The notes under the pieces were generated by a model. The model searched no databases. It was not told where the DNA came from and saw nothing but the letters and a program-made list of their open reading frames with translations. Of a DNA stretch of 64,000 nucleotides, positions 6,719-59,360 are shown in pieces. A program made the translations under genes and the position numbers. Position 1 is the first letter of the stretch; each line of letters starts with the position of its first letter. Origin of the DNA: Girardia tigrina (Eukaryota); contig MQRK01248900.1 of assembly GCA_001938485.1 (NCBI GenBank), positions 1 to 64,000 of the forward strand, given 5' to 3'.

Positions 6719-6794
6719 ATGCCTCAACGTAAAGGATTATTAACACCGCAAAATACGTTTCTCGATACAATCGCCACGAGATTTGACGGAACAC
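6719..6794 (+). CDS. elk: ELK (Kv12/KCNH8-like) K+ channel, coding exon 1 (PAS-cap)
   Basis: Translates [25 protein letters not shown](H), the diagnostic ELK N-terminus. In-frame TAA just upstream (6713-6715); AAAAATG start context; phase-1 donor C|GTGAGA at 6795. Absent from the ORF track because it is short. Confidence 0.97.
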
Positions 6795-6999
6795 GTGAGA
6801 TTGTTTTTTGTATCGTTTTGATTTACTATTCGGTTGGCAGATTCAAATCTCTATTCTAAATTTATGTCAAATAATGATTAAAAATCATTGTAGAGTGCTA
6901 ATTTTAAAATTTTCAAAAAGAAGTTCGTGTTTTTTAAAATTGAGTTGTCAACCTCAATCTAAAACTTTAAAAAAATTGAAAATCATTTTATGTATACCA

Positions 7000-7790
7000 T
7001 GATCGTCAATATATTAAGATCACGCCGATATTATCAAACAATAGATGATTTGAAGAATCCTGAGCAAATATAAACAAATCGGTTTAAGAAGTTAATATTT
7101 AATGTTACCGCATTTCTCTTGAAAAACTGTTTGAATACGACGAGGTATTGAGCCCATTAAGGATGATAGTCCAAAATTTATCTTTTGGATTAGGATCTTG
7201 AAATGTTCCTGATAAATGTTCTAACAGGTCATTGTACATGTTTCTGAGCCAGTAATTCACACCACGTACCATGTGATATGGTGCACATTGTGTAGGATCA
7301 CAGAAATGACTTACAAAACCACAAAAGGAATAGAATTGAAGCATCAGACTTTCGTAGAAGAATATAACTTTTTTCCAATCTTGTATTATCTATTTCAAGT
7401 TTCGGTGTGATCAGATCTTATGATTTGTAATGCTCTTTAAAGATCTTACTAGTTTAAAAGCAGAATATATTCTAAGTTTGGAATCATAGTTTGAAAACTC
7501 AATTTCCTGTTGTGGCTTGGATTCCTCATAAATTCACACTTTATTATCCTGTCAATTCTAGGAGCTGTTAACCACAATATACTACTTTTTCTCCTGGTTT
7601 CATAGTAAACATACGAGTGGAATTTTGTAAATTGAATATTTTTTTCTGTTTTGCAGCATTTTATATACAAATTTCATTGCAACTTCCATGTTCTGTAAGA
7701 CATTGATCATGTAAAATGCAACTATGAGCTCATTTGGCAATTGAAATGTCACTGTAGGGTCCATCTACAACTGGATACAGGGAAAATGAT
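7000..7790 (-). pseudogene. Highly degenerate Tc1-like transposase
   Basis: QDWKKVIFFYES (~7352-7385, minus) resembles the WKKVIFSDES motif. Boundaries are approximate. Confidence 0.45.
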
Positions 7791-9627
7791 TACCCCTAAA
7801 TGCTAATAAACGTAACTTTTGTCTGTCATTATTTCATTTCCAATCTATCAAAAAACAAAAGAACATTGTAAAACGTATATATTTAGATATCTCTTAAAAC
7901 TGATAAAAAATTGTATGGAAATTGTTTGATCAGTTTTATTTAAATAAAATGATTCGAGCGTTTTTGTAAACAAGGAAAAATAGAGTACTAAAAGATTAAT
8001 AGAGTATTTATTTTTTAATCTGATCCATCATTTACCACTGTAAAATTTTCGACAGGTTAATTTTAACGTTAACAAATCCACTTATATGATTATGAACTCG
8101 CCAGTCAGCAAAAACTGCAACCACAGATATTACTTTCGTTAAATTTTACCAAATAGTCATGGACAATCGTAGAGTTAAGTCTTCAAAGACAGTTAAGTCA
8201 TTAAACATGTTTAGAGAACATGTTTATTACGTATTAAACAAAGATTTAGTCGCTAGAAAGCTGACCACATTAGCACTGTATATGAGACTTGGATTCATCA
8301 TGCCACTCCAGAAACAAAAATTTAACCCAAATAGTAAACTACTGAAATTTATCAACCCAAAAAAAGCAAACTGTTGCTTTGACCGGGGAGATATTTTTCG
8401 GATAATCATTGATTTATTTTCACTGATTAGTTAGCAAATAGGAAAACTAATACATCAGGATCTAAACATCAATACGTGATAAACTGTAGAGTACGTTTGC
8501 TAATGAATAAATTTGAGTTTTTAAATAGTGGACGGTCTCACAACCTCTCCAGTCTCATATTTTCTTAGCCGATTCTCAATCTTTTTTACTCATCAGATCT
8601 GGCTCCGAGGGACTTTGGTACTTAAACTAAACGTTGCACTTGGAGGACAAAGATTTATTATCTAATTAGGACAAAATCTCCTTTAAAAACTACTTTTTAA
8701 GGAAAAGACACTAAGTACTACTTAGATGGGTTGCAGAAGTGTATGTGAAGTGTATAGATCTTAAAGCATACTCATATCATTGTTAGATTTAAAATGTGTT
8801 TAGACTATTTTAATATATACTTAAATAAATATAGTTTCAACGATAAAGCATTTCCTTTCTTTGTATGGACCAAATATTGAACTATCAATGCTTAAATTAC
8901 AGTCATTTTATGAAAAATAATAAAAAAAACATTATACCAATGTAATGACAATCAATTACAATATTGGATGCAAGTATACAATATATAACAATATATAAAA
9001 ATTAGTTATTTTTCGTCTAATATATAAAGCTTTCTTTTCTGTAGTTTTAAATACTTTCTATAGTGTTTTGTGAATGAGCTGACCAGAAAGCTAACTGATG
9101 GAGTATGATAAAAGTAACATTTTGTTGTTCCATCTGTGTCGTAATAATTCAAAATTTTGAAAAAAACAATCTGAAATGATAATAAAGAATAAAAACCGTT
9201 CAAAGAGTTTATATTAAGCTTTGTAATTTCTACCTTTGACTAAGAAATAAGAAGCAAAACAAATATTTATGTAACAATTACAACATCAGACTCTCAAAAT
9301 GTTGTCTTGAAAGAACAGAGCAAACAACATTTACTTTTCATGACTCTTATCTATTTAAATAGAATAATATTATTAAAATATAATCAAAAGTAGTATTAAT
9401 AAATAATATAACTTTATATATAATGAATATGTGTTATATAATACGTTATATACGTTTAATATGAAGAAATTTATGAAAATAAATATATTTTCCTTTGAAT
9501 ATATTTTTGTAAAACTAAATGAATTTATTTACTATAATCAACTACCTCATTATAACATGCCCTGAGGAGCCAAGGCTCAAGAGTAACCACATCGCTAGCA
9601 TTATGAAATTATGATATTTTTGAATAT

Positions 9628-9629
9628 AC

Positions 9630-9681
<52 letters not shown>
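9628..9681. repeat. (TA)n microsatellite; others at ~1831, 20428, 21215, 40013, 41820, 46168, 46757
   Basis: Read directly from the sequence; several abut N gaps. Confidence 0.95.
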
Positions 9682-9684
<3 letters not shown>

Positions 9685-10357
9685 TTCAAACTAAAGAGAA
9701 CAATTTATGTATTTTTAAAAAGCATATATAAAATAGAAAACGTTAAAATAAATGTGTTTATTTAAATCGAAAACTTTTCCATTTTGCAAAACGAAGAAAT
9801 AATTATTTACATCTATTATCTTAATTATTTGTACGATTTTTCAAAACGAAAATGAACACATTTGTTAATGATTATTTAACATTTTTTTCATTTATTATTG
9901 TTTTCTTAAGAAAATAATTTCCATGTTTTTTATATTTTTTAACTTATTTTTATGTTTTCATTTGTAACACAAAAAATAAATTCCAAAATATCGATTATGA
10001 TGTTATTTTTACTTTAAAATAAGAAACGTTTTAAAGGGTTTCTTAAAAGAAAGATATATACAGCCGTATTTGTATCATTCCCTTTTTAAAATTTATTAAT
10101 CGATTTTGAAATCACTAAAAAATGTTTTATGATAAAAATTAGTTACTAGGATTAAAAGATAAAAAATAAAATTAAAAAAGGATATTTCTATTTTGTTAAA
10201 CCATAAAGAGTTTAATATTGTACGTATTAATATTTCTTAACCCTAGAACCCTGTACCACAACACCCCATCAAATTTAAAATTACCGCTATTTTTGTGTTG
10301 AATGTAATAAAGAAAGTAAATAAATTTCATATTTCATGTATTTTTGTTTATTATCAC

Positions 10358-10540
10358 TAGTGCACGGCATTTAATGACCTTAAAAATTAAAAAAAGACTA
10401 TTTTATTTCCTCTCTTCCCGATGAGATATTATTTTGTTCTTTTCCTCTGCCAATAGAGTCGCCACCGTCACCAATCCGCCGCAGTCACACCACGGCGCCA
10501 CCCACTCTGTTATCAATGATTATTATTATTAATAATAATG
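10358..10540. mobile_element. Truncated hAT MITE, same family as 62492-62739
   Basis: Collinear with the 62492 copy from the TIR TAG(T/G)GCACGG to the (TTA)n tract; the right end is replaced by mariner sequence. Confidence 0.85.
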
Positions 10541-10554
10541 ACCAGCCATGAAGT

Positions 10555-11158
10555 GGTGGACCGAAAGAAATGGAGGACGAAGAGCTTCTGGTTTTCTTAG
10601 AAGAGGATGATGGACAGTCAAACCGTGAACTAACCAAGCGCGTCAACGTTAACCAGTCGAAGTCCTACGGCGTCTGAAAATGGTTATCACACAACGAAAT
10701 TGTGATTAGCTATCTTAGCTGAACGAAAAAATCAGCGAGTTAGGGAAAATGTGGGCCATAATAGACGCAAGGTCATACTACTGCATAATAACGCTAGACC
10801 AAATGTTTTGTGGGCGACAAAAGTATGATATTAGCACTTGGATGGGAGGTTCTACCGCATCTGCCATATTCACCGGACTCGGCTCAAACAGATTTTCATA
10901 TATTTCGGTCTCACCAACATTATCTCGCTGAACAACATTTCAAAACATGCGATGAAGTCAAGAAATGCATAGATGACTTTATTGATTCGAAAGACAAAGA
11001 CTTTTTCACCAAAGACATTCATCTATTGGTTGCCACAAAGATAACAAAAGACCACAGATGCTAATGGTGAATACTTTGAAGATTAATCGTACTCCACTTT
11101 GCTTTAAAAAATAAATAGTTTTAATTAAAAATGGTCGGAAATTTATGCATCACCCTAA
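10555..11158 (+). mobile_element. Mariner remnant (DD34D C-terminus and right TIR)
   Basis: Reads GPKEMEDEELLVFLEEDDGQSNREL and LGWEVLPHLPYSPDSAQTDFHIFRS; ends GGAAATTTATGCATCACCCTAA-TA. Confidence 0.88.
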
Positions 11159-12389
11159 TAAAAATGAATAAATGCCAAACTTGATCAATATATATATTTA
11201 ATTATATATTTAGAGCACGAAATTAATTTATTATATACTGACCTTAAATGAGGACAAAGAGAGAAAAAGAGTTAAAAACATAAAGTTTTTTTAATATGGT
11301 TTTTAGCTTTGAAAAACTTTTCAAGCATAGTAATATATACGTTTTCGTGATTTTTTCAACATGGAATATTTATTTTGCCTTTTAATGCTAGTTTATGACT
11401 CTATCAGGGTCTGCTTTGATTTAGAAAATGAAGAGTTTATGTAGGTTATACGAGGTAGAACTCGAGCTACAATATAATTAGTTTTCTAAATGAACTTTCA
11501 AGCATGCTTGAATGAGTTTTCTTTTCAGTACTCTAAAGAATTCATAACATAAAAAAACCTTTAGAAATTGAAACAAGAATAATTATTGTAGCCATTTTTG
11601 AGGGAAAATTGAGTTTAATACACCTATTATTCTTTAATATTTATAACTGCCCTCTAATTCTAATAAAAAGCTTTTTTCTATATGGTTAAAAACATTTTCT
11701 CTATAATAAGTAAAAATCGAATGAGGGTGTTTCTTATTATTCATTGCTTTTTCATTCTTTGACTAAAGATAAATACAAATGAGTTGAATTTTTATTATTT
11801 CAACACTTACAAACTATGATATTAATATTAAATGCAGAACTTTAATCCTTCAAACATTTTTAACAGCGCGGTTAGATTTTCAGAAAAAAATTGAAGATCC
11901 GTTGCTCTAGGAATATATCTACTGTTCTACTTGATCTCCAGGTTGCACGCAAGACCGGATGGTGGTAGCAGAGGTTCGCAGTAGGAGCTTGAAATCAATG
12001 TGCTAGGCCCGTTTTGTAATAGGATTATGTGGACAGTTCATCTTCGAAATTAGAAAATTAAATTTTTTTGAGTGAATTCGATTTTTTCATTCAGAATTAT
12101 AATCAAAATTCAAAAAAAAACTCTTTCAAAATAAATTTTCAATTCAAAATAAAATGATATCGATTTTATCACAAATTTTCAATCGAAGATGTAAAAAATT
12201 AACTTTATTCAACTTTATTTTTACAGAAATTCAATCGCATTTGTCTTAAATAAACTCAAAACTTTTCGTCACAAAAAATTTCAAAAAATTAATCGTGAAT
12301 AAAAAAGTGTCAGTGAATAAAATCTTTTAAGTTCTCCAACTACTCTCTGATTATCTAGCCAATTCTAAATTGAATAAATAACAATAATA

Positions 12390-13985
12390 ATAAAATATTT
12401 AATAATTGTAAATGAATTTGAAAAACAATGGCAATTCGTTAAATTTAAACGTGGAAAGCCAATTGAAAATGTTTATTATTTTCGACGGCTTAACCGTCAC
12501 CGTCAGAACAACTATTGGGTGGAGGAATAAGTTCTCGCCGTTTTTTGAAAAATTAAAATTTTATTTTTTAACAAAAAAGTTACTACAAATTAATCACAAA
12601 TATAATCTCCGCCATTGTTCACGACTTCTTCCCTACGTTCAACGAGTTTTTCAATGCCTCTTTGATAGAAATCGCCCGTTCTTGACTCGAAGAATTCAGC
12701 CAATCAAACTTGCAGTTCTCCATCATTGTTGAACGAAACACCACGTAAAGCGTTAGAAAGCGAACGGAAAAGATGAAAATCAGATGGAACCAAGTCAGGT
12801 GAATACGGAGGGTGCGGTAACACTTCCCAACCAAGCGTTTGTATGGCTTCTTTTGTCATTCTGCCAATATGAAGACGTGCATTGTCGTGTTGCAAAATAA
12901 CGCCATGTTGTCGATCCGGATGTTTTTGTCTTATAGCGGCGTTGAGTCTATGTAGCTGTTGAACATAAAGTTCTGCGTTCACTATTTGGTTTCGAGCAAG
13001 CAATTCATAATGAATAATCCCTTTCCAACCGCACCAAACGCATAGCATTGTCTTTCGTGGATGAAGATCCTGTTTTGCTAGCGGTGTCGATTGTTCTTCT
13101 CGGCTACGCCATTCTTGGCGCTGTTTCATGTTGACGTACAGGCACAATTTTTCATCACCCGTTACAATTCGATAAAGAAATTGTTGCTTATGACCGTGAG
13201 TAGAGTGATGACGGGCAAGCAAACTCGCCGAAATTGTGGATCGCTGGTTTTTATTGTTTTCGGTCAATAGATAACCCAAAAGATTTCCTTAATTTTCCTA
13301 ACCCAAGCTCCCATTTTTTGAACTTTTCCCATTGATTTCAGGTGGTTCACGACAGTTTTTTGATCACAATCCATTTGTTCCGCCAATTCTCGAGTGATTT
13401 GACGCGCCTCTTCATGCAAAACTTTGTTCAAACGCTCTTCATCGAATTCATTTAGTCGTCCTGAACGAGGTGCATCCTTGAAGTCAAAATTGTCAATTTT
13501 AAATTTTGCGAACCAATCACGTGCGGTTCTATCAGCTATAGCACCTTCTCCGTATACAGCACAAAGCTCTCGGGCAGTGTCTGCGGCTTTGGCGCTTCGA
13601 TTATATGCAAACAATAGATGGTGTCGGAAATGCTCATTTTTGTCGACTTGACACTCCATTTCAATGGTCTAAAAATCGAAAAAAATTAATCTGAATAAAA
13701 AACAAAATACACCATTTTTTAGAGCAAAACAATAGCTTTCAAATAACATATAACATTACATCAAAAAATTTGATTTAAATATTAAATTGATTAAAAATTC
13801 GAAAAACAGTGGGAACTTATTCCTCAACCTAATATTTTTTTAAAAAGAAATGGACTTATATACTGCCAGTAATGATTATGTAATCAATACATCATCAATA
13901 AATTATTTAAAAACCCTCAATAAAGTTGTTGAGAGTGCATTTTGAACGTTAATTTTAGAATCCTATAAATAACGCGTCACATATA
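12390..13985 (-). mobile_element. Penelope-like 3' end/pseudo-LTR split by the mariner insertion
   Basis: Flanks 12390-12514 and 13833-13985 rejoin into a reverse-complement copy of ~46470-46720, carrying the GIY-YIG tail and a hammerhead-like motif at 12470-12507. Confidence 0.8.
12515..13832 (-). mobile_element. Full-length 1318-bp mariner element with frameshifted DD34D transposase (ATG at 13659)
   Basis: TA TSDs at 12513-14 and 13833-34. ~30-bp TIRs TTGGGTGGAGGAATAAGTTC / GAACTTATTCCTCAACCTAA. Motifs: HTH, GAWV, TGDEK, LQHDNAR, HPPYSPDLVPSDFHLF. Two frameshifts (~13290, ~12710). Confidence 0.97.
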
Positions 13986-14048
13986 TAAGATATAATTATG
14001 TATAAGATCCTAAAATTAACATTCAAAATAACTCATCAGAATAATAAT

Positions 14049-14088
14049 TTGCTTAGGAGGATCAATTATTTGATCGAAACACGTTCAA
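14049..14088 (+). ncRNA. Degenerate minimal type-I hammerhead ribozyme (Penelope-like)
   Basis: CUUAGGA (one mismatch to CUGANGA), stem II GAUCAA/UUGAUC, GAAAC-AC-GUU, 3-bp stem I UUG/CAA. Lies downstream of a PKINIQN endonuclease-tail relic. Confidence 0.65.
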
Positions 14089-15199
14089 CGATAGTTTTTC
14101 AAAATGTACTTTAATAAAATATCTATTTAAAAATATCACTAAATCATTAATATAATATTATACATTATATCAGTAAAATATATTTTAAAATTAAAATTTA
14201 TTTTCAATATTTTTTTCATTATATTATTTCATTGTATTCTTTTAGTATTGATAAAAAAAATTTTTTTTAATTATTCTTCATTTGTAAATTAATCTTTAAT
14301 AAAATTTGTCATTCAAGGCTTAAAATCTTATTTATTTTAGAATTTTATAAATTAAAAGCTTTTTAATAATGATTTAAACTTTTACTAAAATTCGGAATAT
14401 CCGCCGAGAAATCTTTCAGACATGAATTAATTAATAAAAATTACACTACGAAAATAAGGCATGTTATTTTTTATCAATTTTCCTTTTCATTAAATGATAT
14501 AATGATATAATTTTTCTAATTCTTTTTTTTTAAAAAAATTATTTATTATTCTAAAGAAGAGAATAACTTAAAAGACGTCATGAAAATAATTGACAATTGT
14601 AATAATCTTTAATTTTCCTTCTCAAATGTAAAATAATCATCTGGGAGTCTGTCTGGTGCAAAGTTTATGACAATATAGGAATAATAAACCACTAATATTT
14701 TTTGCAATTAAATAAAATTATTATACAGAGAAATATAAAAGTGATACCAGTTTTTCTCGGAAATCATTTACTTGATTTATTATATCTTGATACTTTAAGC
14801 ACTGCAATTCACAATTTTTTTAACCCGATGAAAAATTATCTTTATTTTATTTAAAATGAGTAAGAATTGCCCACCCTAATTCTTTGATTTATTCTCATTT
14901 AATGTTTGCAGTATGCGGTCCTGCTATGTAGATGTTAAACGTCTTTCCCGTAATGTTTTTAAAATTAAATGCGATAACTTATGAGTGTTAAATTTAGCAC
15001 GAGTCATTTGTTCATGTTTTAAAAGTTCGAAAGGAGCCACTTCCATTTATGCTTATTAGACAAACATTCAAAGGTTTCGAAGTCCCATTGGATATTTTTT
15101 CTGTCGAAATTAACTGTTCATTTTTTTTAAAATAGCCATTTATTGTGATAATACACTCTACATATGCTTATTCTTACTGTCAAGAGAGAAGGTATACGA

Positions 15200-15560
15200 A
15201 GTCAAGGTATTCGATTGTCGATGGCATGCCGCTGCGCCCCGGATAAATTTTATAAAAAATTTTGTTGCTAGGACCGATAGTGAACTTTGTCTCAGTCGCG
15301 AAAAGCTGTACAAAGGACCATGGTGGCCAAAAGGTAAACTTATGTTGTCTATCCAATCACGAATTTTGGTTTACCACTTTATTGGGAATCGTTGAACAAA
15401 CTGGTGATCTGTCTCTTGTGGTTCTTTAATAATGAACAATAAGCTGACGCTTTTTTCACTAATTTTTCGACTGTAGGAACGTCAGAATATGCTCGAAATT
15501 CTTAGCCATATTATCACATTTGACATTTTTATCACTACGATCAACACTGTCCCCATCGAC
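15200..15560 (-). pseudogene. Possible Helitron PIF1-helicase C-terminal relic
   Basis: Scrambled RFPIKV and FGHHGPLYSFSR resemble the QFPIRL and FSHGQLYVAFSR motifs. Confidence 0.4.
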
Positions 15561-15578
15561 GATTTTAATCAAATGATA

Positions 15579-16400
15579 CAGGGTTTTCCAATAAGAGGTG
15601 TTATTTTGAAATTCAAAGAAAAATCCATTTTTATAAGATAAATGATCGTATATTTATTACATTATAAAGAGGAAGCAATGTCGTTAGTCATGGTAAATAA
15701 CATCACTCAAATGACCACCACAACCACGCATACAGGACCACATCCGTTTTTATGAAATTTCGCATAACCAAATTGCAATGTGACTGCCCTATGTCCTCGA
15801 TAGCCTCATGAATTCCATATTTGAGATCTTGAATCGACGCTGGGCTGTTGACGTAGACCTCCTCTTTCATGTGGCCCCAAAGGAAGAAGTCGCTTGGTGT
15901 CACATCATAAGATCTCGTTGGCCAACTGTGATTACCTCTTCGAGAGATAACATGATTCAGAAACTTTTCCCGTAAAAGATTAATTGTTTCTTTGCTTGTG
16001 TGGCACGTAGCGCCGTCTTTTTGAAAGTAAACGTGATCCAGATTAATACCATCCAATTCCGGTCATAAAAAAAATTATTAATCATCTCTCGATAGCTCAA
16101 TCTATTCACCGTAACTGTTGCTCTAGCCTCATCGTCGAAAAGAAAAGGTCCAATGACCCCACCGAACCATAGACCGCACCAAACAGTCACACATTGAGGA
16201 TAAAGAGGCTTTTTAATAACAACTCTGGGGTTTTCTTAGCCCCAGATGCGACAATTTTGTTTGTTGACGAAACTACCAAGGTTGAAATGGGCCTCATAAC
16301 TAAATATGATTTTCTGGTGGAATTTCGGATCATTTTATACATTTCAAGGATCCAATCAGTAAAGACACGGCGTTGTTGATGATGTATATTGAGATGCAAT
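15579..16400 (-). mobile_element. Truncated DD41D (rosa/VS-type) Tc1/mariner element
   Basis: VWCGLWFGGVIGP; FQKDGATCHT...WPTRSYDVTPSDFFLWG with 41 residues between the 2nd and 3rd Asp. TA|CAGGGTTTTCCAATAAG TIR at 15579; frameshifted. Confidence 0.9.
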
Positions 16401-18699
16401 CATTTGCAGCGCGATTTTATTATTCACATAAATTAATCCATTTAAAAATCATGATCTAATTTCATCGTTCCTTCTGGTAATTCAAGGATAATTTTACTAT
16501 CAAAACCTATAACGTATTATTTTGCGACAAACAATTTTCTACATCAATAATACCTGATCAACAACTTTTTTCAAATAAAAAGCTTAAGGTCAATCCAAAC
16601 AAAAAACAACTTTTGGTAAGCTAACAAAAACAAAAATGAAATTAATTTAATTTTCTTTCCCTTTAGACAAAATCAAAATCTCAATTTAATTCATCTTTTT
16701 TTAGTTAAATTTATTTTTACAATTATTTTTTTTAATTTTATATTTTTTGAAATAATAATTATGAGAATAATTTGTAACGTCAATATCAGAATTCATTTTA
16801 CTTAAATTATATCTTTATTATAAAACAACTTTCAAACAAATTTTCCAACTATTTTCTTAATTAATAATTAATCCGCTGATCTCTATTTTCAAATAATTTT
16901 TCATCCATTCATAATTTTAATCAAATCAAAAATAACATTGAACTTTTTTAAACTTCTAAATAAAAATAGTTATTTTTTTAAATATTAAAATATTAAAAAT
17001 ATTATTAATAAAATATTAATTTTAAAGAAATATTTAATGTTTAAATTTGTTTTTTTACTTTAATCCTTTTATACTGTTTTTATAATTTCGTTTTTCAACT
17101 GAAATATTATATGCTGTTTTTTTTAATTTTGCGTTGTTTTTTTAACCATTTTAATATTTTATTATTTCAGAAATTTTTTGAAAATATATTATACTTAATA
17201 TTCAATTTTTTTATTTTTTTTAAATATTTAATTTTTAATCATATCATTAAATTAATTTAAAATAAGAAAATACATTTTTACAAATATCAAAAAAAATTTA
17301 ATATGATTTAAATTATTAAAAAAACTGTTTTGTCTGTTATCTGTTTTGATCAACTCATTTTGCTATTAAAATTTATTTTAATTCAAAATAAATTTATACA
17401 AAAGGTTTTTAAATTCAAATCTAAAATATTTAATATATTATAATTTATTTTTAAAATTTTCAACTTGATTTTAATTTAAAATAACCTGTTTAAAACTATT
17501 TAACTTTTGATCAGTCAACCAAAATTAATTACTTCCTCATAATAATAATTGATAAATTAAAAAAAATTTCTAATAACAATATATGTATGCGCAAAAGCTA
17601 TTTATAAGAAGGAAAATAAAATATGAAAAGTTATGATAAAATATAAAACAAATCATTTATTTAAAGTTCATATTTATAAAATAGTATTTTTACTCTTAGT
17701 CTGATAATGTCGAATTACAATTATTCAACAAAGTTATTACTTTTATTTTTCCCATCGAATTCTCTAATTGAATTTTGTATCTCCCCAACTTAATGTAATT
17801 CAATTCTAGTTGATATAGAATGCCAACAGTAAAGCGATAAAGAATTTCAGGCATGTTTCATAACATTATCTGAAGAAACGTTACAATGTTTCAAATTGTC
17901 AACTATTAGTTACCTTTATAATTTTTTTAAAAAAATTGCATGTACAATTTTGATTTTAGTGTCAAATAATATGTATACAACGCCCTCGCAAAAGTATTCA
18001 ACCATCCGGTATTATTATAAATTATTTTTTTGGTACCTGTGGGACTGGCATCCAACGGAAGTCGCTGGTTTTCCAGCCACTCAAACATGAGAAGGAACGC
18101 TGGAACAACGCTCGTCTTGCCGCTCGACACAAGTCGTCGGTGCAGCCGGTTCATTATCGGTTCGTTCGTTCGATTGGGAGCGACGACACCGTCGGTCGAC
18201 TCTCCTGTCGACTGTTGCGTGGGGCTCTCAATCCCAAATAACGCATCGATCGGATCGATGCCTGTTGTCGAGGGGAGCACTCTGGTTGGTTTGGCGATCG
18301 GGTGAATCACAAGGGACGGAGCGCGCAAACCCGGCGCGAAGTCCGAGTATCGGTAGGGACCGATCTGAGTTCTGAGACGAACGATCAGAATCCAACGGAA
18401 TTAACCGGTGCGACCGCAGTAGACAGCGACCGTAAAGTGGAGCGACGCCTCGTGCAAAGGTCCGAGCGGGAGATTCCCGTCAGTGGTGGGAGTGCTGTTT
18501 GAAAATAGCATAGTGTTACGAATTAAATGACATTAATAAATTAACATAGAGTCAAAAAGTATTCATCATTTATTAATTCAAATTTCTAACATTAATTGTA
18601 ATTATTTAAACAAGGTTGAATTTCTAACAGTCATTATTTTTAATTTCTAATCAGATTTTTTCGAATCGTATTTTTTTTGGTTGATTTAGAAGATCACTA

Positions 18700-19125
18700 C
18701 AGTACCGTAGCCGTTGGGCTGTGGGTGCACTCAATTATTAACCAGCATTATGGCATATGTTTGAGTGTCTCAGTAGAAAAGAAACCTGGTGGCGCCTATC
18801 TCTTCTCAAGGTATGGATGGCCGTTGGCTCCAAGGAGCTAATCCGCCCTTTGCTTGATTTTGTTTTTCAACCTGCTAGGTGTCCACACACTCTCTTCACC
18901 TAGGTTGCATTGGGTGAGGGAGCCGATTTCGTCGCCAACCATTCGACCATGGGACAAGTATTACAGGTTTATATGGTACCTGCAGCAGACAGCTTGCCTG
19001 ACCTGACCTGCAGTCAATGGCCCCGCCATTGCCTATTAGTCACCCATATAAGTACTAACGCGGCCGTTTGTTCCTTAACTTTCGAGATTGGACGAGATCC
19101 GCTGTACCCAACTGCGACCATTGAC
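18700..19125 (-). mobile_element. 5S rRNA-derived SINE (SINE3-like), ~425 bp
   Basis: Head 19125-19013: CGGATCTCGTCCAATCTCGAAAGTTAAG...GTTAGTACTTATATGGGTGAC matches the 5S A box, intermediate element and C box. No oligo-T terminator; continues into a ~310-nt non-5S body. Confidence 0.82.
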
Positions 19126-19569
19126 TACTTATAAATTACAGTACAACTCTAATTGCTTAAATAAAACAAAAGATATATAAAACAAGTTTTTTAAAGTATT
19201 TGTTTAAATTATATTAGTAATAAATCTTAAATATTAACAATTGTTTATAAAATTATATTTCATTTTTAAATATACTTTTATTTATTATAAAAAAAATTAT
19301 ATTTCATTTAATTTAATTTTGAGTTTATGTGTTAATTTTTAAATTACAGCAAATTTGTTTAATAGTTAAAAATGTTTTTAATTTATTAAAAGTGTATTTT
19401 TTGAAAAATATATTAATACAATTTTTTTAGTGTTTTAAGAATATTTTAAAATATATTTAATATATTTAAAATATATCTAATCAGAATTTTGAAAAATATT
19501 ATGTGTTTAATACATATTTCCTTTTGGTTTTATTTTTGTAATTTTATAAATCTGTTCTATCAATGGACG

Positions 19570-19615
19570 ACCAGCAGATGATGTTCTGATAAGAACGAAA
19601 CATGACGTAAATTGT
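19570..19615 (+). ncRNA. Degenerate minimal hammerhead motif (Penelope-like 3' end)
   Basis: CAGAUGA-U-GUUC ugauaa GAAC-GAAAC augac GUA, followed by AATAAA. Core U>A mismatch; stem I is weak. Confidence 0.5.
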
Positions 19616-20422
19616 TAAATAATAAATGGTTCCTTCGTTTTGGACTATATTAAACCAATTAAATGATATATATATTGTTGACTTGAACAGAGAAAGTGTT
19701 ACGGGAAATAATTATTTTCATTATTAAGTCAAAATCCTTCATGATTTAGTGTACACATAAAAAGATAAATAAATTTTAACGAATTTTGTTTTTTAAACAT
19801 TTATATGCGAATAAAAGCTGAAAATTAAAAGATTTTTGTTGAAACTAAGTGCATAGTGTCAATAATCATTTTTTTAGAATTGACCAAAATTATTTTTTAC
19901 AGGATTTCTCTAGCCTCAAATAGCTATAAGACACTTTATCAGAAAGTTCAGTTGGTTTGCGTTGATGAAATTTCAGATTGTTTGGGATTTAATGTGAAGA
20001 TAAAAATTACATGCGTGAAATTGAGAGTTTCTTAGAGATTGTTTATTGTTTGGTTATCAATTGTAATAAATGATGAAAAGATAAATTTATACATTTATAT
20101 ACAAAAGAACTAATCAATTAATTTCAGACATATCTTATGAAATATAGAAAATAGAAATAAATTATTAATTATATAAATATTTAAATTCGTAAGTAACGTA
20201 AGAAGTAATTTTTATTACAAACAAAATTCAAACAAATTTTCTAATTCCTTTAAAAATTTAATAATCGATTCGCCGCTCTTTATTTTTTAAATAATCTTTC
20301 TATTTAAGATCACGATTAAATGTTAAAGCTTATTATTAAAAACATTTAATCCAATTTTTAATAATAAGCCCTTGCTTCAAATGATGAATTTAATCTGTTT
20401 GAATTTAATTTTATTTATTCTA

Positions 20423-20468
<46 letters not shown>

Positions 20469-21210
20469 TATATATATAATTTTCTAAATATTAAGTTCAA
20501 ATGACTTCCATGTTTCATTAATTCAAATTTTTATTACAATTAATCATTCCAATTAACCTTAAATCATCAAAGCCAGGTCTAATTAAAGAGACAATAAATA
20601 ATGGAAAGGGCTGAGGTCGATGTAACAGTGGAAAAAATAGATATTTCATTTCCTGTTTTTCATTTATTTGTTATATAATGAATTATTTAGCAAAGTTGTT
20701 TAAAATATTAAGCTTGGTAAACTTGTACTAAAATATTGAACTGAAAAAGAATATAATATAAATTCAATGATAAAATCATGAAAAATATTTTTATTTATAT
20801 CGCCATAATTATTGAAAAAATATAATTTATAATTTTGTATAAATATTTGTACATAAAAATATTCTTTTCACCATTTTACATTGTAAAATCAGAAGCTATT
20901 TTCCTAATTTTTATTGTAAATAAAATTAATTTTTTCAACATATGTGTGTGTTTATGTGTGTGTGATTATGATAATTTATGATTTCAGACATTATTTATGA
21001 TCTCAGAAACTGATTTTTAATTTCAAAAGATTTTATCTCATTATATATGTTCTAATATTATTTTATAAATTTCAAAAATATAATTTTTTATTATAATTTA
21101 TCAATTATTATTTAAAACATACACTTAAATCTAAGAATAGTAGCGTAGCTCTATCAACTTAATAATGATTGGAAATTGTGTCTGTTAAATCTTCTTTCTG
21201 TCAAATAATA

Positions 21211-21261
<51 letters not shown>

Positions 21262-21311
21262 NNNNNNNNNNNNNNNNNNNNNNNNNNNNNNNNNNNNNNN
21301 NNNNNNNNNNN

Positions 21312-21357
<46 letters not shown>

Positions 21358-22341
21358 TCTAGTTTAAGTATATAATTTACGGTGCAATTACACAATGATA
21401 TTGAACATACGAGAGAAAAAAGACTTATCACTCATTGTTGGGGAGATACTTTTGGATGGAGACGCTGGAGGTTATTCAAATATAATTTTTATTAATGAAA
21501 ATTTGTTACGAAATTGAGAAAATTAATAACATTTAATTAGTATTTCTGGTCATACATTTGAATTATTATTTTCAAAGTTTTGGACGTCACATGGAGGGGG
21601 AGTCAAGATAAAGTGCAGTTTGAGACAAGAGGTAAAGACTTGTCTTAAACTCCTTTTTTCTATGCACTTCATAGTTGAACTTCACCAAAAATATTTTAAA
21701 TTAAAATTTGTAGTTTCTACAGAAAAAAATCAATATTTAGAAACATTCTAATCAATAATAAATAATTAAACATGAATGAAATACATTAATCTTAAAATAA
21801 TTACTTCTATTTAAGAAAATGTTACATCGTTTTATATATAGATATATATAAATTTTATATATAAATTCAATTTATAAACTGATTCAGCTTCATTTCAATT
21901 CTGTGGAGTGTTTACATTTTTCAGTCATTTTTCAAAATTAAATTATGATAATATATCTTAATTATATTCTAAAAAATAATTTATTAATAGAAATAAAAAT
22001 GAATTATTTTAATCAGTTTCCTTAATCGTAATTAATTACCATTTTAATTAATAATGTTCTCATTCAACGTCAATTAGAGATATTTTATTCAAACAGCACA
22101 TTTTATTATTAATAATAAATGAATGATTATTTTCTTCTTTTCTGGTTATTTTAAATTTGATTTTCTTTCCCTTTATAAAAATTTTCCCAAATAACATCAA
22201 AATCAAGTAATTAGAATGTATTTTAAATTGATAAAAATAATGATAATAATAACGATAATAATTACTAACAATAAATTGTTTACTAAGAAGCTATTTTTAA
22301 TTATATATTATTTTTAATAAAGTACACAATAATATAAAATA

Positions 22342-22621
22342 CAATATTTTCCGGTAGATAATGCGCACCTATTGTATAACGCGCAGCTCTTACTTTTTGG
22401 CATCTCTTTTTTATGTATAGATAACGCGCATAGCAAGCGTGCTGGTATACCTAAGAGTTATACATCATTATCCCGAGTATACCTAAGAGTTATACATCAT
22501 TATCCCGAGTATACCTAAGAGTTATACATCATTATCACCAGTATATTTTGACAGTTCATATTTTGACAAAATTTAACATTTTTGTATATATAACGGTGGG
22601 CGTTTTTACCGGAAAATACGG
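22342..22621. mobile_element. pogo/Tc1-type MITE with an internal 32-bp x3 tandem repeat
   Basis: TA flanks; TIRs CAATATTTTCCGGTA / TACCGGAAAATACGG. Unit GTATACCTAAGAGTTATACATCATTATCCCGA at 22445, 22477 and 22509. Confidence 0.8.
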
Positions 22622-23179
22622 TACTTAGTTGAGTCAATGAAAATATTTTGTATCAAATTTCTGACAACAGAACGTTGCCTGAATAATAATATTAATTTAA
22701 TAGTTTCTTTTCAAAATATATTCTTTTATTTATTCCCCCTTAATCGTTTCATTAAATTACATGAGTCATTTTTCATATGTAGAATCTTGATACAGCCAAT
22801 TTTATATTGTTTGATATAATGTACTATATGCTCAATTTAAAATATATTCATTCTACATATATTCTACATATGTATGATCATCAGCAAATATAAATTGTTT
22901 CAACAAATTATGAAAATAAAACAAAGAACAAAAAAAATTGTAAAATAAAATTATCAAATTTTACTTCATGTAAATATTATGAAATAATATTGAAGAATTT
23001 TATTTATTTAAATAAACACAGTGATGTCTTAAGTTACCAATTCTGAAGTTTAATTAATGGGTTGAATTGGCTTATCAATAATGATTCACAGAACTGTCTC
23101 TCAAAATGTGAATAAAAATCCTTTTGTAATATAGCAAATACATCCTTAGAAATAGAATAGGTTCTATTCTTACTATGCA

Positions 23180-24870
23180 ATCAATTATCAAGATCGATTT
23201 GTCTCTACTATGCAACCGCCCTGACAACGCGTATTAGTTTGTAGATGCATTAGTGCACAGAGTAAAAAACGGCATGACCAAAGGATGCAGGTATGAGAAC
23301 TTTCAGAGCCCTCGTTTGTCTTGGCATACCACATCTTAAAGACCAGTTATTATTTCTGTACCAATGATTTAACAATTCTTCTGTTGAACCTACACTTTTT
23401 GTATAATATGCAATGCGATAAAAAGTCCATACCTATTTCATGTCGCCAAGCCGGATAATTTTCTTTTCATTGAATATTTTTCCTGGTCCTTTTTTAGTTA
23501 AATGCACATTTAGTTGATCAATCTGAATTTTTTATCATATTTTTTGTTAGCTATCCACTTGTTTTATAATTCTGACTCAAATAATGCATTGAGCATAGAA
23601 ATAAACTGCATCATATTATTGGTGATGAGATGTTCAAGTTGTTCAACACCCGGATATAGTACAATCAATCATAGCTATACAATGTGGAATCATTTTCAGA
23701 TAAGTAATATTGTTTTTTCTATAAATCGTGATTTCTATCTCGTATTAAACCGTATTAAATCTCGTATTTAATCCAATGTTTGAATTCCTCCCCATTTCGA
23801 GATTGAACTGCGATGTCTATACTTAAACTTTTTAATTTCTCTTTTACATCAAAGTAACTATAGCACATCCTGATCCATCCTTTCATATGTCAACACATTC
23901 TTACGCCCGCTGATTTCACTTCTGTCCGATATGAATTATGTATTTGAATTGTGTAAATATGTTTCGTGTATTCATTGAACTAATTACACTTTTTAAGTAA
24001 TATAATTTTCGATTTACTCAGTTTAATTTATAAAAAACCATCAGAATATGGCTTTTTCACAATTGGTTTAAAAGTCTCTTCCAAATCAACATTCTTGATC
24101 TTACTTGTTTAACTTTCTTCATTCTCTTTGTTCAATACTTCCTTCCACATTTTATCAAAAGCACTTTCAGAGTTAATAATTTTATTCAGTCTTTTCTTCA
24201 AAATATCAAAACCTTTGTGAGCTAATTTAAAGGTTGGAGATAAAGATCATACTTTGTTTATCAAATCTCTGATAAGACCACTTGGAGCGGAAAATGATAT
24301 GGTTGACCGAGCATTCATAACTCTGTAGAAGTATATCTTCACTTTGAAAATCCTACTATGAATTCGTGCCATATTTCGTCTGGTTGTTTATAAATTCAAC
24401 TCAATCAAAACAATCATGTAGTATAGCATCCTTTATCATTTCATTGAAGACAATGTTGAATAAACAAGGTCGCATTAGATACCCCTGCTTGACATCCATA
24501 TTCATTTTGAACTCACTTTCTTCAATGAAGGCTGTAAAAACCAAACTTAAAAGCTTTATCCGATCGAGCCTTTTTTCCGAAGTTACCAATGTTTTAAACA
24601 TGCTCAGTGAACTTATTTAGGTGCTCTGTTCAAGGTTTATCGTTAAATCATGCTGAGAATACTAATTACTTTCATAAGGCCTCATTAAGGTCTGAAACCG
24701 CATTGCTATTAATCTAATATATTTCCCATTAAAAGTGTTTGTTCATTTACAAAATTCTTGCAAAGATTTTACCTTTCCACTTTTACAGAAAAAGTTACTG
24801 TAAATGTTTGCATCTGAATGACTGCCTTTTTTTGAATAGGGATTTTACTCTAACTAACTTCCTTTCAACC
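23180..24870 (-). pseudogene. Degenerate non-LTR (RTE-like) reverse transcriptase, probably interrupted by a Gypsy fragment (~24000-24260)
   Basis: FKMNMDVKQGYLMRPCLFNIVF matches the GVKQGCxLxPxLFN RT motif. Boundaries are approximate. Confidence 0.6.
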
Positions 24871-25429
24871 AGATCAATTTAAAATCCTTTTTAAGTTTCT
24901 TGCATAACCGGTCGCCTCCTTTCTTGATAATATCCACTTCATTCGTGCTAACCCAATCCCCTCAATCAACCGTTGCTGCATACTCATCGAACACTGACAA
25001 AAAATAAGTAAAGTGGGAGTTTCCGTGGCGGTTCCCATTTGCAAAAAAATAAGGATAAGACATAATCGGATACAAAATTTATTGATCACAAAATAAATTT
25101 TACACGATTTTTCGGCAGTTCGCTCACGGTTAAAAACATGTCTAAATTGGTTTGAATTTGTGACACTCGAATTATCTCCTTTGAAACATTAAAACAATTG
25201 TTTTCGTTTCTTTTATTTACATATTTAATTTCATGTGGAAAAATTCTTGGGTCGATTTATCCCGATATTCATTGTGAAAAAAAAACTTCTGGGAATTTTA
25301 ATTTTGTAATTATTAAATAGTTTTGCCACAACAAAAAAATAAAAGAAATTTAAATTACATTTAAATAATATTTAAATTTGTGAAAATTTTAGCGTGGTTT
25401 GATTTTTTGTTGGAAATGTTCACTACAAT

Positions 25430-26460
25430 GAGAGTCCAGGCTTGAAAGAGTTTTTGAAAGTGTTTTGCCAATTCTTTGTTTTGATCGTTGATAAAACCGT
25501 TAGTATGTATCTTAGATTCCTTGTAACCAAAAACTCTTAGCTCTAAATAGGCATTTTCCTTTACTATGAAATTTCAGTAGTCTTTCATCTTGGTACATTA
25601 TCATTCAGAGTAATCTGAATTTGATACTGGAACTTTATTTCTTTAGGAACTTTAGAAATTCAAATGCCTTTTTATTAAACAGTTAGTACAAATAATTGGG
25701 AAATATTGAGTTTGTGTTCCCGTTTCGTCCACTTGCAATTAGCAAGATTTCAATACTCTAACTTCATTGAAATTGTCTTTCCAATTCTTATTTTTCCATC
25801 TTCTTTCTGTTCAGTCATAATTTCATGTCTGTTGGGAAAAGTAAAGAAAGTAGTAAAATCCGGAATTCCTATTTTAAATTTAAATCGAAAATTTAAAAGT
25901 GTTTCTTCATACATTATATCACAATAGTTTGTTTTTTCGTGTTGCATTTGGTGAAATGTTTAATACTCTAATTTATTGTTTGATTTTTCCAAAAAAAAAC
26001 CAACATATGTTGGAAAACTTTAATTAAAATGCATGTGTTTGTAATAAACCGATTCTTTTCTTAAAACATTAAAATTCAAATTGGATACATGTGTTGTTAT
26101 TTGGAAAATATTCAGCAAAATCTTATAAGCATTCCAAGTCTGAAAAGCAATCTACAAAACTGTTCAATTGCTTTGATTATAGCCAAAAGCTGTTGGAGAT
26201 CTCTTAAGCAATATAACCAATCGATATGGCAGTCCAGAATATTAAAAACTAGCTAACATAGCTCTTCTAAAATATGAAGAGGTTTGTCATAAGCACTAAG
26301 AAAATTAGCATATCGAGTCGAGCAACAGAAGTAGACCAATTCCATTTTTTATTTACCATGTTTATTCTATGAATGAACCTTTTTCCATTTTTTATAAAGA
26401 AATATTTAGTAAAGGACCTTAATAAAAAAGTATGTCTATTTTTACACAAATAAATGACAT
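25430..26460 (-). pseudogene. Degenerate Gypsy pol (RT-RNase H) relic
   Basis: KWNWS, YDKPL and QLLAIIKAIEQF (RNase H ELLAI motif) lie in scrambled frames. Confidence 0.45.
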
Positions 26461-26723
26461 TATCGGTATAAGATTTGAGGAAGATGAGAATTAGAAATGT
26501 GAATTTGTTATTTTTAACATTTATTCTAACTTATTAAAGTTTAAAAAGCAAAATAGAAATCATAAAAACCTTATAAAAACTCTTCAACTGGAATGCAAAA
26601 AATGTATTTTAAGGGTCATTTGTGATCATGGGTCTCGTTTTTTTCATCAATGAGAATTTTACTTTTAAAGAATTATTTTTTGGTCTTAAGATCATAAAAG
26701 ACATTTAATTTTTATTATTTTAG

Positions 26724-30943: not shown

Positions 30944-33150
30944 TTAATGAGAACAGTTATAACACAGTTTCACTTGGCATGGTTCACACATTGGTTTTGA
31001 GCACTTGCAACAAATGATGTAAGTTTTATTTTGTTCACAATTCTTGCGTATATTACATTTTACCCGTTTGTCAATTGTGAGAGACTTTGAAGGAATTAAG
31101 AGTTGAGGTCGTGGAATTCTAGCAGCAGCACATGTTTGGGTGAGTTTTGCGCCAAGCTGAAAGATAAAGCGACGACGAGATATATTTTTCTTGCTGTTTA
31201 GTTTGAAAAGAACTCTGAAAGTGATCGCAGCAATGTTTAGCAAGTTACAGAAGGCTGCCAGTGGCCATCGACACGTTCCAATTTTATTTGTCATGGCTTT
31301 GCATATTGAATCGTCCAAGTCAACTCAATATTTATTTTTATTGTAGTATTTGAGTCTGGCTTTCTTTTACCAGTTGATTCGCATGATGCTCCACGATGCA
31401 AAGTCGATAGGACATAGACAATCTTATTTGATTTTACCTGATAGCAGACAAGTTTTAGTTCTCCATTTTGTAGAAATATTTAATCATAATGATTCGTTTT
31501 GGCTTGTTCTGGTACTTTCCCTCTATTTTTGCGGATAGTTCCGACGATTGACGTTAAGCTTTCTACAAGATTCTCAGCAAACTTTTGGCCCGTGAAGAAA
31601 CTGTCTGTACAGACATTATATCCCTTATTTAGATATGTAGCTATCAGAGACATAATTACATTTTAACCAACACTCATTGTAGGGGTTCTTGATTCATCTT
31701 TACTAAGGTAAGGAATAAGATTGAGACAATATTTGTTTATTACTTAAACTACGAGGGACGTTCCGAGTGTAAGTGGAAAAAAGGGAGACGACACCACAAG
31801 AGAGCATTTATTGAAGGTATATAATGTCATTCATCATCCTCATCACTGTGAAACTTGGTAAGGCAGCAATTTGCATTGATGGTCTCCGACACTTTTTCCA
31901 CATTTTCTACCGTGCTCGTCGTTGCTGGACGTCCACTCATGTCCTCGTCGTCCAAGGATTCACGTCCATTTTCGAATTGATGCACCCAATTGTAGACGGC
32001 AGACCTTTGCAGGGCTCTTCCTTGAAATACATTTGATAAGCGGCGCACAATGTCAGACACTGGAGTATCCTCTTTCCAAAGGAAAAGATAATGGCACGCT
32101 GAGAACGTACTGCGTCTTCCATGTGTTAAACAAAAATGAAAACACTGCATATGACAGTTTCCTCTATGCTGCTCACATGTTGCATGGACCAATACCACTT
32201 TTGCTCGATTTCTATTGGCTGGTAAGTACATCACGCCACCACACCACCACGCCACCACGCCACCACGCCATCTGTCCCTCTGTAAGATGCACACACACGC
32301 GCACACCCATATATAAGTATTTCCACTTACTTTCGGAATGCCCATCGTAGCATTCAGTATTTGATACAAACTTGTTTGGCTTGTTCTTCGTAAATTGCTA
32401 AACTCAACAGCAAGCCTTGGTGGGAAATAGTTGCTCATCAGCAGTCAAATCAGGACTGGGTATGTAGGCTTTCTGAAAATTGCTTACTATTCTGTCGTGA
32501 ACCACGGACACTAGAGCATATTTGTCTTATTCGAATCTCTGGCTTCTGATAGTTTTCTTGTTGAACTTCTTTATCTGACGAAAAGGGTCTCTTGACATGA
32601 TTTTCTCAAATTTCTCACATCCATATTCACTTGACCACAGGAGATCATATGGGAAATTGGACTTGCTCGTGGTTTCTTTGATGAATAGAAGACCGATGAA
32701 TACTTCAAATTCGTATAGTTCAAGGGAAAAGCTTTCATCATCCTGATGGCGCGCATAGTCGATTTTGCATTCCCTGATAAAGCAAATAATTACATCATCT
32801 ACAAAAAAGGCGAAATACATCCACAGAGTCTTCCACACTCCGGCAGTAAGATGTAATGCCTGTCTCGACTATGTAATGTAATGAAAATCTCCCACTCTCT
32901 TCACTTATTACGGGCCGCCACTCTGTACCATTCTCTGCGAGAATAAAAGGATGGTCCTCGTTTTCACTGAGTTAATCATTGTCACAGTCACCGCTTACTA
33001 AGCTTGAAACAACGCTGGAATTTGAAGATGATTCATCACTTGATTCGCTTTCATCACCACCAGAATCTCTATTTTCGTTCCAAAAAATGCACTTGAACTC
33101 TCGTAGATAGCATGGACGAATATTCCGTCTTAATAGACCCCTTCCATTCA
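30944..33150 (-). pseudogene. Degenerate piggyBac transposase with C-terminal Cys-rich domain, interrupted by a mariner
   Basis: ELYEFEVFIGLL...LLWSSEYG...MSRDPF; RWPLAAFCNLLNIAAI...RRRFIFQL; C-terminal CNIRKNC...CCKCSKPMCEPC. Confidence 0.88.
31752..32347 (-). mobile_element. Internally deleted irritans-like mariner (596 bp) nested in the piggyBac
   Basis: TA TSDs; TIRs CGAGGGACGTTCCGAGTGTAAGTGGAA / TTCCACTTACTTTCGGAATGCCCATCG; HTH region VYNWVHQFENGRESLDDEDMSGRP. Confidence 0.9.
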
Positions 33151-55639: not shown

Positions 55640-56670
55640 CAGGGTGACCTTAGAATTGACCCAAAAATATATTTTTAGACTTTATTATCATAGAGTTTTT
55701 ACTTTATTTTGAATTTATTTTTTATATAAAAAATTGACTATAAAACAGAGATAATATAAACCACTTTATTTTAACAACTTTAAGATAAAAAATAGACTAA
55801 ATTCAAACCAAATTAATTTTTTCTAATCACAAAAGAAGTATTAGTCGTTGCCAATCATTTTCCTTGCTTTTATTGTATGCTTTTCCTTGTCTTTCCACAA
55901 AATGTTTCCAAGAATAGAAAGCAGCGGTCAACATCATCCAAAGTTAATTGACAGGTAAGCAACATCTAATAATTGCTTGGAGAAATATCCTGCCGTTTAT
56001 GATGGACGACATCTAATATTTCGTTTTTTTCCAAATCTTTTACTATGTAACCAGATACATTGAATGAATCCTCGTGTAAAGATACCGTACTTAAGTCAAT
56101 GTATGCTGTTCCTATAGTATATGAGCTGCTTTGGGTCACTTTAACATAGTTTAATAAACTAGAATAATTTTGTGATGTTTACCAACTCGTCTTCTGAATT
56201 CTCATGTGCTAAGGCTGTTCTGACACGGGTAATAAGAACTCCATCATTTTTGATTTTTTCGACAATAAATCGAATTGCAAGCAAATGATCAGAGTACCAG
56301 ATCGCTGCAGTTAGTCATTTCCCCAAACGTGTGAGTGGCGCTGAGGTTGTTGGCCGATTTCATCAAAATGCAGACAACGAACACCGTTTGCTTTCATTCT
56401 TGCTAATAGATCATCGACTGCTGGAAAGAATGCACGAATTCTTAACGCACAAATATGCAAAAGATGTGCAACAAATGTGACGTTCCCTATTGATTGATTC
56501 ATGGTTATTAATTTAGTACCACATAATATGATGTATGCTAATGCATCTGTAAGGTGTAAATAGAAATTTTCAATAGTAATACTAATAAAACGAATAGCAT
56601 CATCAATATGCTGAACAACTAAGTTGCAGTTGATAGCAGTAGCCAACTGCACATATTCAAAAGTCAATGT
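55640..56670 (-). pseudogene. Degenerate hAT-like (DUF659-type) transposase with one TIR-like end
   Basis: VTFVAHLLHICALRIRAFFPAVDDLLA (CxAH motif), TRLGK*LTAAIWY (TRWGSW-like), DVDRCF (VERSFS-like); CAGGGTGACC end at 55640. Confidence 0.72.
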
Positions 56671-56759
56671 TAAGGTTATTGTTAGTAGATAATGACATAA
56701 AAATTATATAATAATATCTTCAAATATATATTAATAAATATATTAATAATTATAATAAT

Positions 56760-59004: not shown

Positions 59005-59360
59005 TTCAAGAAATTACAACTGTCATGTATGACGGGGAAGTTAAATTTTGTCTTTGAAAGTTTGTGTTTTATTTAAAAAATCGTAGTTATAATTTGTTAT
59101 ATATTGTTTCGAATTGGGTGTTTAATTTTTCAAGTTTTTTAAATTTAATTTTTTTATTTTCTTTACAAACATAACACTAACCCCTAACACCCAACCCTAA
59201 CCCTAACATAACCTTAACCCTTAACCTAAACCATAACTTTAACCCTAACCATAACACCAAACACTAATCTTAACCCTAATCCTAACCCCAACCCGTAAAA
59301 CGATTTTTACAACAAAAAATTTAATTAATTTAATTATCTACTTACTATTGTAAGTAAATA
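59005..59360 (-). mobile_element. Related Helitron copy containing a degenerate (TTAGGG)n tract
   Basis: Reverse complement AAACTTTCAAAGACAAAATTT...CCCGTCATACATGACAG matches 57118-57164; ~20 TAACCC-like units at 59172-59294. Confidence 0.72.

Follow-up and report, generated by a model that had tools for sequence, protein, structure and literature searches.

A SINE3 family in the flatworm Girardia tigrina that joins host 5S rRNA to both ends of a likely RTE-type LINE

Introduction

The stretch of DNA analysed here, 64,000 nucleotides of a Girardia tigrina contig (MQRK01248900.1, positions 1 to 64,000; hereafter the window), contains a segment that resembles 5S ribosomal RNA at one end and runs on into some 310 nucleotides of other sequence. 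An earlier note, written from the letters alone, had read positions 18700..19125 as a 5S-derived SINE with a LINE-derived tail, possibly of an undescribed family held under structural constraint. The locus thus raises the question of whether this segment is a retroposon or a stray piece of 5S rDNA and, if a retroposon, from what it was assembled. Our answer, to which we give a probability of roughly 0.92, is that the segment is one decayed SINE3 copy of a flatworm family built from host 5S rRNA, the full 5′ UTR of a LINE and the last ~45 nt of that LINE, likely transcribed by RNA polymerase III (Pol III) and likely inserted by the LINE through target-primed reverse transcription (TPRT). The copies share these modules, are dispersed, carry target site duplications (TSDs), A tails and 5′ truncations, lie downstream of a T stretch and fall into three age groups.

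Architecture of the window copy

All of the features that had been read in 18700..19125 are present in the sequence, and all lie on the minus strand. Alignment to the family consensus places one SINE copy of the intermediate age group at 18702..19128 (minus strand), with ~90% identity to that consensus; neither a second copy nor a tandem array of the SINE was found within the 64-kb window. The copy opens with a 3-nt leader, GTA (19126..19128), which lies outside the TSD. Since this leader is found in 37 of 54 copies, half of these loci having been chosen by a young-type head pattern, the true 5′ end of the family lies 3 nt beyond the end first proposed. GTA is the complement of TAC, the three letters that come just after the head in the family consensus; the window copy has TGC there.

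The 5S-derived head follows at 19012..19125, identical to host 5S type 1 at 98 of 114 positions and bearing a 4-nt deletion in loop A. Rfam model RF00001 matches 19125-19012 with 41.2 bits (E 4e-5), above the cut-off of 38, and no other Rfam match in the window reaches gathering level; a second RF00001 score obtained for the SINE3 was 57.4 bits. The elements of a type-1 Pol III promoter are present as claimed, namely box A (19069..19080), the intermediate element IE (19056..19061) and box C (19033..19050, with three changes relative to host 5S), if we assume that their positions follow those of the Xenopus 5S promoter. A linker (19008..19011) replaces the oligo-T terminator of 5S; in the oldest group the helix is still followed by TATT.

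The remainder derives from a LINE that is likely of RTE type, as described below. Its 5′ part (18747..19007) comprises a 253-nt 5′ UTR from nucleotide 1, the LINE-derived start codon (18756-18754) and a deletion junction, and contains both the AGGTG..CACCT hairpin (18901-18877) and a copy-specific TTTT (18777-18780). The 3′ end of the same LINE (18702..18746) supplies the last codons, the stop-codon region and a short 3′ UTR; the AGCC-caac-GGCT stem-loop falls within this part (18720-18709). The window copy has no A tail. The statement that it lacks a clean TSD agrees with a scripted search, which scored none for this copy; by eye, however, the 8-bp repeat GTACTGTA can be read at both 19144-19137, 8 nt off the element, and 18705-18698, overlapping its last 4 nt, and these may be the upstream (19137..19144) and downstream (18698..18705) copies of a TSD on the minus strand.

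The copy is probably dead or inert: it is 14% off host 5S, boxes A and C are changed, it has an internal TTTT and its A tail is gone. We see nothing that suggests a host function for it. Internal TTTT occurs in 14 of 71 copies and the consensus has no run of four T, which is compatible with Pol III transcription of the family but no proof of it.

A dispersed family with the marks of retroposition

Searching the genome with the element gave 3,471 first-look candidates, and all 40 that were scored are real matches; the 39 loci other than the window copy are 84-87% identical to it over nearly the full length and lie on different contigs. Thirty aligned copies have sharp ends, short A tails and, except for assembly duplicates, unrelated flanks, and the family consensus is 437 nt long. 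Exact 18-mers of the head occur 212 times in the genome and 29-mers of the tail, with up to two mismatches, 1,034 times (assembly duplicates included in both), while a reversed control gave 0; the RTE tail differs at three sites and so falls outside that limit. We put family size at 1,000-3,000 copies, which is an estimate because the counts take in assembly duplicates and miss old copies.

TSDs were scored in 30 of 43 full-length copies and in 22 of 258 mismatched pairs; with a stricter score, TSDs of 9-15 bp were found in 35 of 90 copies against 9 of 360 mismatched controls. Thirty tail-anchored loci, 25 of them distinct, comprised 8 nearly full-length copies and 17 truncated at scattered points of the 5′ side. 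Upstream of the TSD lies a T-rich stretch (T 57-69% at −15..−11 vs 38% background), and T is enriched at −13..−8, an interval fixed beforehand around a published position (p 7e-5). This resembles the insertion signature of RTE elements as set out in the available text of PMC6007223, in which Ts cluster roughly one helical turn before the TSD, at ~−10; the SINE peak lies slightly further out.

Taken together, the copies have variable TSDs, a simple tail and 5′ truncations, and are without LTRs or terminal inverted repeats, as is characteristic of non-LTR retroposons inserted by TPRT. The family agrees in length, dispersion and copy number with the SINEBase definition of a SINE, which in the accessible part of PMC3531059 is an interspersed, non-tandem repeat below 1 kb with at least 100 copies. 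Its head is 86-97% identical to 5S over 114-115 nt and has A/IE/C; the limits that we set for a SINE3 were 60% identity to 5S rRNA and a length of 60 nt, with those promoter elements present. Given dispersed copies, a 5S head and shared diagnostic changes, the proposed multicopy SINE3 family is real. Flanking motifs had also brought up a Cassandra/Ajax-type LTR element and a Helitron or CACTA end. These are rejected because the copies have A tails at their ends and their TSDs vary; the CACTA-like letters belong to the flank of the window copy and lie outside the element.

Contigs from three DNA-type or unlabelled sequencing runs, under three organism labels, also cover the element, and two of these runs cross the head-body joint. 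One run, presumed to be RNA, yielded only two short contigs, which are indistinguishable from the LINE.

The 5S head and three age groups

A tree of 71 unique full-length copies separates 9 old copies (8 of them independent) from 62 younger ones with support of 100/98. The younger copies were split by hand into 12 middle and 50 young, a weak division, and well-supported inner branches number only 4 of 68 in the whole tree; the window copy belongs to the middle group. The oldest group comprises 8 independent copies, a search for more having returned mostly younger ones. Within the old, middle and young groups, copies differ from the group consensus by 12%, 8% and 4%, respectively, and the three consensuses match host 5S at 112, 107 and 104 of 115 positions, the oldest thus at 97%. 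An identical four-base gap in loop A is common to the three consensuses.

The terminal helix grows from 9 pairs in host 5S to 10 and then to 13 when the GTA leader is counted. In the window copy the ends of the head pair over 10 bp (one of them U.G), as the earlier note had it, but the further point that helix I survived despite divergence does not hold. The best genomic 5S genes (104-108 bits) share their first and last letters with the SINE head, so helix I is inherited from the host; these genes then run into T runs and unrelated spacers.

This bears on the mechanism first proposed, in which the 5S fold is under selection because the SINE binds TFIIIA or ribosomal protein L5. Some role for the terminal stem is favoured by its growth, by helix I being unaltered in each group consensus, and by the head of the young group folding more stably than host 5S (z −4.1 vs −2.0). 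The group consensuses, however, keep 39, 35 and 35 of 41 predicted 5S pairs where random placement of their changes would keep 39.2, 37.5 and 36.7 (P that simulated equals or exceeds observed, 0.79, 1.0 and 0.96), and the chance that 11 substitutions would miss all 18 helix I sites is 0.14. Among 49 young copies, moreover, helix I changes at rates of 6.6% and 3.3%, compared with 3.6% in the body, so that decay in the helix is no slower. Loop A is a site at which TFIIIA contacts RNA, and its deletion in all groups argues against TFIIIA binding the SINE RNA. With no excess of kept pairs, loop A deleted and helix I inherited, we regard such constraint as highly improbable.

The GTA leader lies mostly outside the TSD and is absent from all 8 of the oldest copies. 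Box A starts at position 50 in host 5S, at 46 in the SINE and at 49 once the leader is included. In type-1 promoters the spacing between control region and start site is constant, so the simplest reading of the leader is that the Pol III start site would have shifted. Fold-back copying at each insertion does not account for the leader, position −4 being T in only 8 of 37 GTA copies; a single founding fold-back event may have been its source.

The genome also holds a second, divergent type of 5S rRNA (loci L037, L041, L054 and L039). In L037 and L041 it is followed ~80 nt later by a sequence whose first letters resemble the start of SRP (7SL) RNA.

Body and tail come from the two ends of one LINE

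Of 30 reverse-transcriptase loci examined, four had a 3′ end that matches the last ~45 nt of the SINE, and a search with the protein of this LINE gave 137 matches in the genome. In 27 of 34 loci the LINE 3′ end is matched by positions 391-433 of the SINE consensus, with 79-90% identity (two pairs being the same place), and in nearly all of these loci an (AGA)n-type or A-rich tail follows. The LINE origin claimed for the tail is thereby borne out, the SINE tail being the end of the LINE frame, stop codon included. What the earlier note had missed is that the body comes throughout from the 5′ end of the same partner: in 24 of 30 loci the LINE 5′ end is matched by consensus positions 120-387, with 80-88% identity, and these matches start sharply at one G with a 5S head in none. 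The SINE therefore contains the whole LINE 5′ UTR and first codons joined to the last ~45 nt of the same element.

The LINE has a 253-nt UTR and encodes endonuclease and reverse transcriptase domains in a single frame. One end-to-end copy measures 3.28 kb and has a broken frame, an (AGA)n tail and a 9-bp TSD with one mismatch; all six full-length copies that were read are broken or incomplete. The partner likely belongs to the RTE clade, which we assume from an architecture in keeping with that clade (single EN+RT frame, 3.28 kb, 253-nt UTR, microsatellite tail); its 82 homologues are single proteins, mostly of ~1,000 aa, and carry no clade name. A further locus (L164, G000:C234463) holds a partner LINE internally deleted to 1.24 kb that retains both ends and a TSD.

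The age groups also drift stepwise from the LINE, as they do from 5S: the old, middle and young consensuses are identical to the LINE 5′ end at 249, 244 and 240 of 267 positions. The old-group tail is nearly identical to that of the LINE and the younger groups alter the last bases, ending in GGTACC plus an A tail where the LINE ends in GGTCAAA(AGA)n. Because young SINE and LINE 3′ ends differ, a sister LINE may have become the partner of the younger groups; no LINE ending like the young SINE was found among the 30 tail-anchored loci. A bipartite precursor without the head was likewise absent: of the 25 distinct copies anchored by their tail, 0 begin at LINE nucleotide 1, although one begins 5 nt before it.

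Of 50 pairs predicted with confidence in the UTR-derived body, 47-48 are kept, against 42.6-45.6 under random placement (P 0.014-0.11). This is a weak test in that the structure is predicted, the three comparisons depend on one another and some of the difference had already come about in the LINE. For an HDV-like, hammerhead or twister ribozyme in the body or the LINE 5′ end there was no Rfam match at E ≤ 10. The body contains no ribozyme core motif and copies do not pile up at LINE nucleotide 1. A ribozyme of unfamiliar fold may sit at the LINE 5′ end.

Origin and later course of the SINE

We propose that the SINE arose when an RTE element lost its middle, everything between about codon 6 and the final ~47 nt; a 5S head would have been gained, likely through template switching onto 5S rRNA. 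Breakage of the 5S oligo-T terminator, of which the TATT of the old linker may be the remnant, would have allowed Pol III to read through, transcribing the element from the internal promoter of 5S. The 4-nt deletion upstream of box A likely shifted the start 3-4 nt upstream and could thus have fixed the GTA leader. The RNA would then be mobilised in trans by the LINE protein, presumably recognised through the common 3′ stem-loop and inserted by TPRT.

The template switch has a possible counterpart in the same genome. At three other loci (L252, G000:C46968; L253, C224179; L255, C193932) 5S sequence with its T tail runs directly into another LINE-type repeat at that repeat's 5′ end. These are likely one-off template-switch products, an in-genome analogue of the proposed 5S switch, and indicate that such a step does occur in this genome. 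That our family is itself a collection of such one-off chimeras, with no SINE that propagates, would be in keeping with their existence, yet hundreds of copies have in common one loop A deletion, one linker and one internal junction. Their shared diagnostic changes are absent from both 5S and LINE, and the group consensuses drift stepwise; the shared changes refute the chimera reading, for which we see hardly any probability left. Least credible of all is that the segment is a stray 5S pseudogene flanked by rDNA spacer. The identity of the head to host 5S (86-97%) would fit, but genuine 5S genes carry T runs and unrelated spacers, and among 29 5S loci fetched the body matches only those with SINE-type heads and differs from the host spacers, being matched instead by the LINE, which refutes a spacer or orphon origin of the body.

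One of the 5S-fused copies runs on, by eye, into an endonuclease-like frame. The repeat to which 5S is fused at these loci belongs to a second family (loci L256-L285; 259 pattern matches) that begins with what by eye is an HDV-like ribozyme motif, and only 1 of 30 fetched loci of this HDV-motif family has a 5S head. Many HDV-motif copies stand behind the same upstream sequence (L257, L261, L264, L268, L273, L278, L280, L282, L284 and L255), which suggests a preferred target.

Beyond the SINE3 origin itself, a more specific history can be put forward tentatively, and we think it rather unlikely to be right in full. In this history the age groups would preserve the stages by which a newborn SINE was tuned: its terminator was broken, its Pol III start was shifted by the loop A deletion, and its terminal helix went from 9 pairs to 13, sealing off the 5S head. 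The fold of the complete UTR would be kept because the RTE protein needs both LINE ends in trans. The figure on which the last part draws is the 47 of 50 predicted pairs kept, against 42.6 at random (P 0.014).

Genomic context

The window copy lies antisense within the first intron (6797..26722, plus strand, ~20 kb) of an Elk/KCNH-type potassium channel gene, between exon 1 (6719-6796) and exon 2 (from 26723). A PAS domain was detected in the encoded channel, and among 72 matches to exon 2 the top seven named were flatworm proteins. The gene model has six exons across 48 kb (6719-55266, plus strand). Directly 3′ of the SINE, in the minus-strand sense, is a separate GC-rich stretch (18040-18520) with a palindrome near 18243-18261; it is probably another repeat, with no second copy in the window. 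Broken transposase-like frames at 12704-13668, 15703-16062, 30944-32868 and 56311-56703 have motifs resembling those of mariner and piggyBac, and a degenerate interstitial (TAACCC)n array of ~20 units occupies 59170-59298.

Relation to known SINEs and significance

SINEs derived from 5S are rare, making up 2.3% of the first SINEBase release, and in the text available they are listed for reptiles, insects, fish and mammals (PMC10946416); the portion of PMC10886601 at hand has no mention of flatworms. As far as the sources describe them, several combine 5S with RTE parts: CoeSINE5, HaSE3 and SINE-1_Pmo, with Ped-1 listed as bipartite (PMC5786205). Ped-1 of the springhare, 5S plus BovB (PMC3747384), is similar to the flatworm element in combining a 5S promoter with pieces from both ends of a resident LINE, of the RTE clade in Ped-1 (PMC3747384, PMC5786205) and likely so in the flatworm, while the flatworm SINE, compared with it by description only, originated independently from flatworm 5S and LINE. 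CoeSINE5 of the coelacanth, SINE-1_Pmo of the python and HaSE3, described from Helicoverpa (PMC3272025), are likewise reported as SINE3 with RTE 5′-UTR and 3′-end pieces (PMC5786205, PMC3272025). In CoeSINE5 and HaSE3, by these accounts, the 5′ piece is an internal fragment of ~50 nt (PMC5786205, PMC3272025), whereas the flatworm SINE has the entire 253-nt UTR from nucleotide 1 and the start codon, and lacks a central domain. SINE2-1_EC/AfroSINE, given as a tRNA head joined to RTE nucleotides 1-221 and the 3′ end (PMC5786205), follows the same plan at a similar length, but its head is a tRNA, not 5S, and its promoter is of type 2.

In planarians, a 2026 preprint reports expanded SINE/5S and LINE/RTE in Dugesia genomes from automated RepeatModeler/DeepTE labels (bioRxiv 10.64898/2025.12.11.693146), and in the part available these elements are known by label, without structure, consensus or partner. 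The literature covered, which excludes subscription papers and repeat databases, yielded no structural description of a flatworm SINE3. The suggestion of an undescribed SINE3 family therefore stands at the level of the family, judged by literature and not by sequence libraries, but not for SINE/5S elements as such, which were already reported in Dugesia. It is possible, though as doubtful as the tuning history to which the claim belongs, that this is the first structurally resolved SINE3 of a flatworm.

The design is the 5S plus bipartite-RTE plan of Ped-1, CoeSINE5, HaSE3 and SINE-1_Pmo; it is already known and involves no new mechanism. What the family adds is an independent flatworm origin of that design, and it gives a concrete structure and a partner to elements of the sort labelled "SINE/5S" in planarian genomes. 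Both parents are present in the genome at 90-97% identity, and the steps of a SINE's birth can therefore be read. Should the tuning history prove true, why RTE-driven SINEs keep a 5′ UTR would become directly testable in animals that are tractable in the laboratory.
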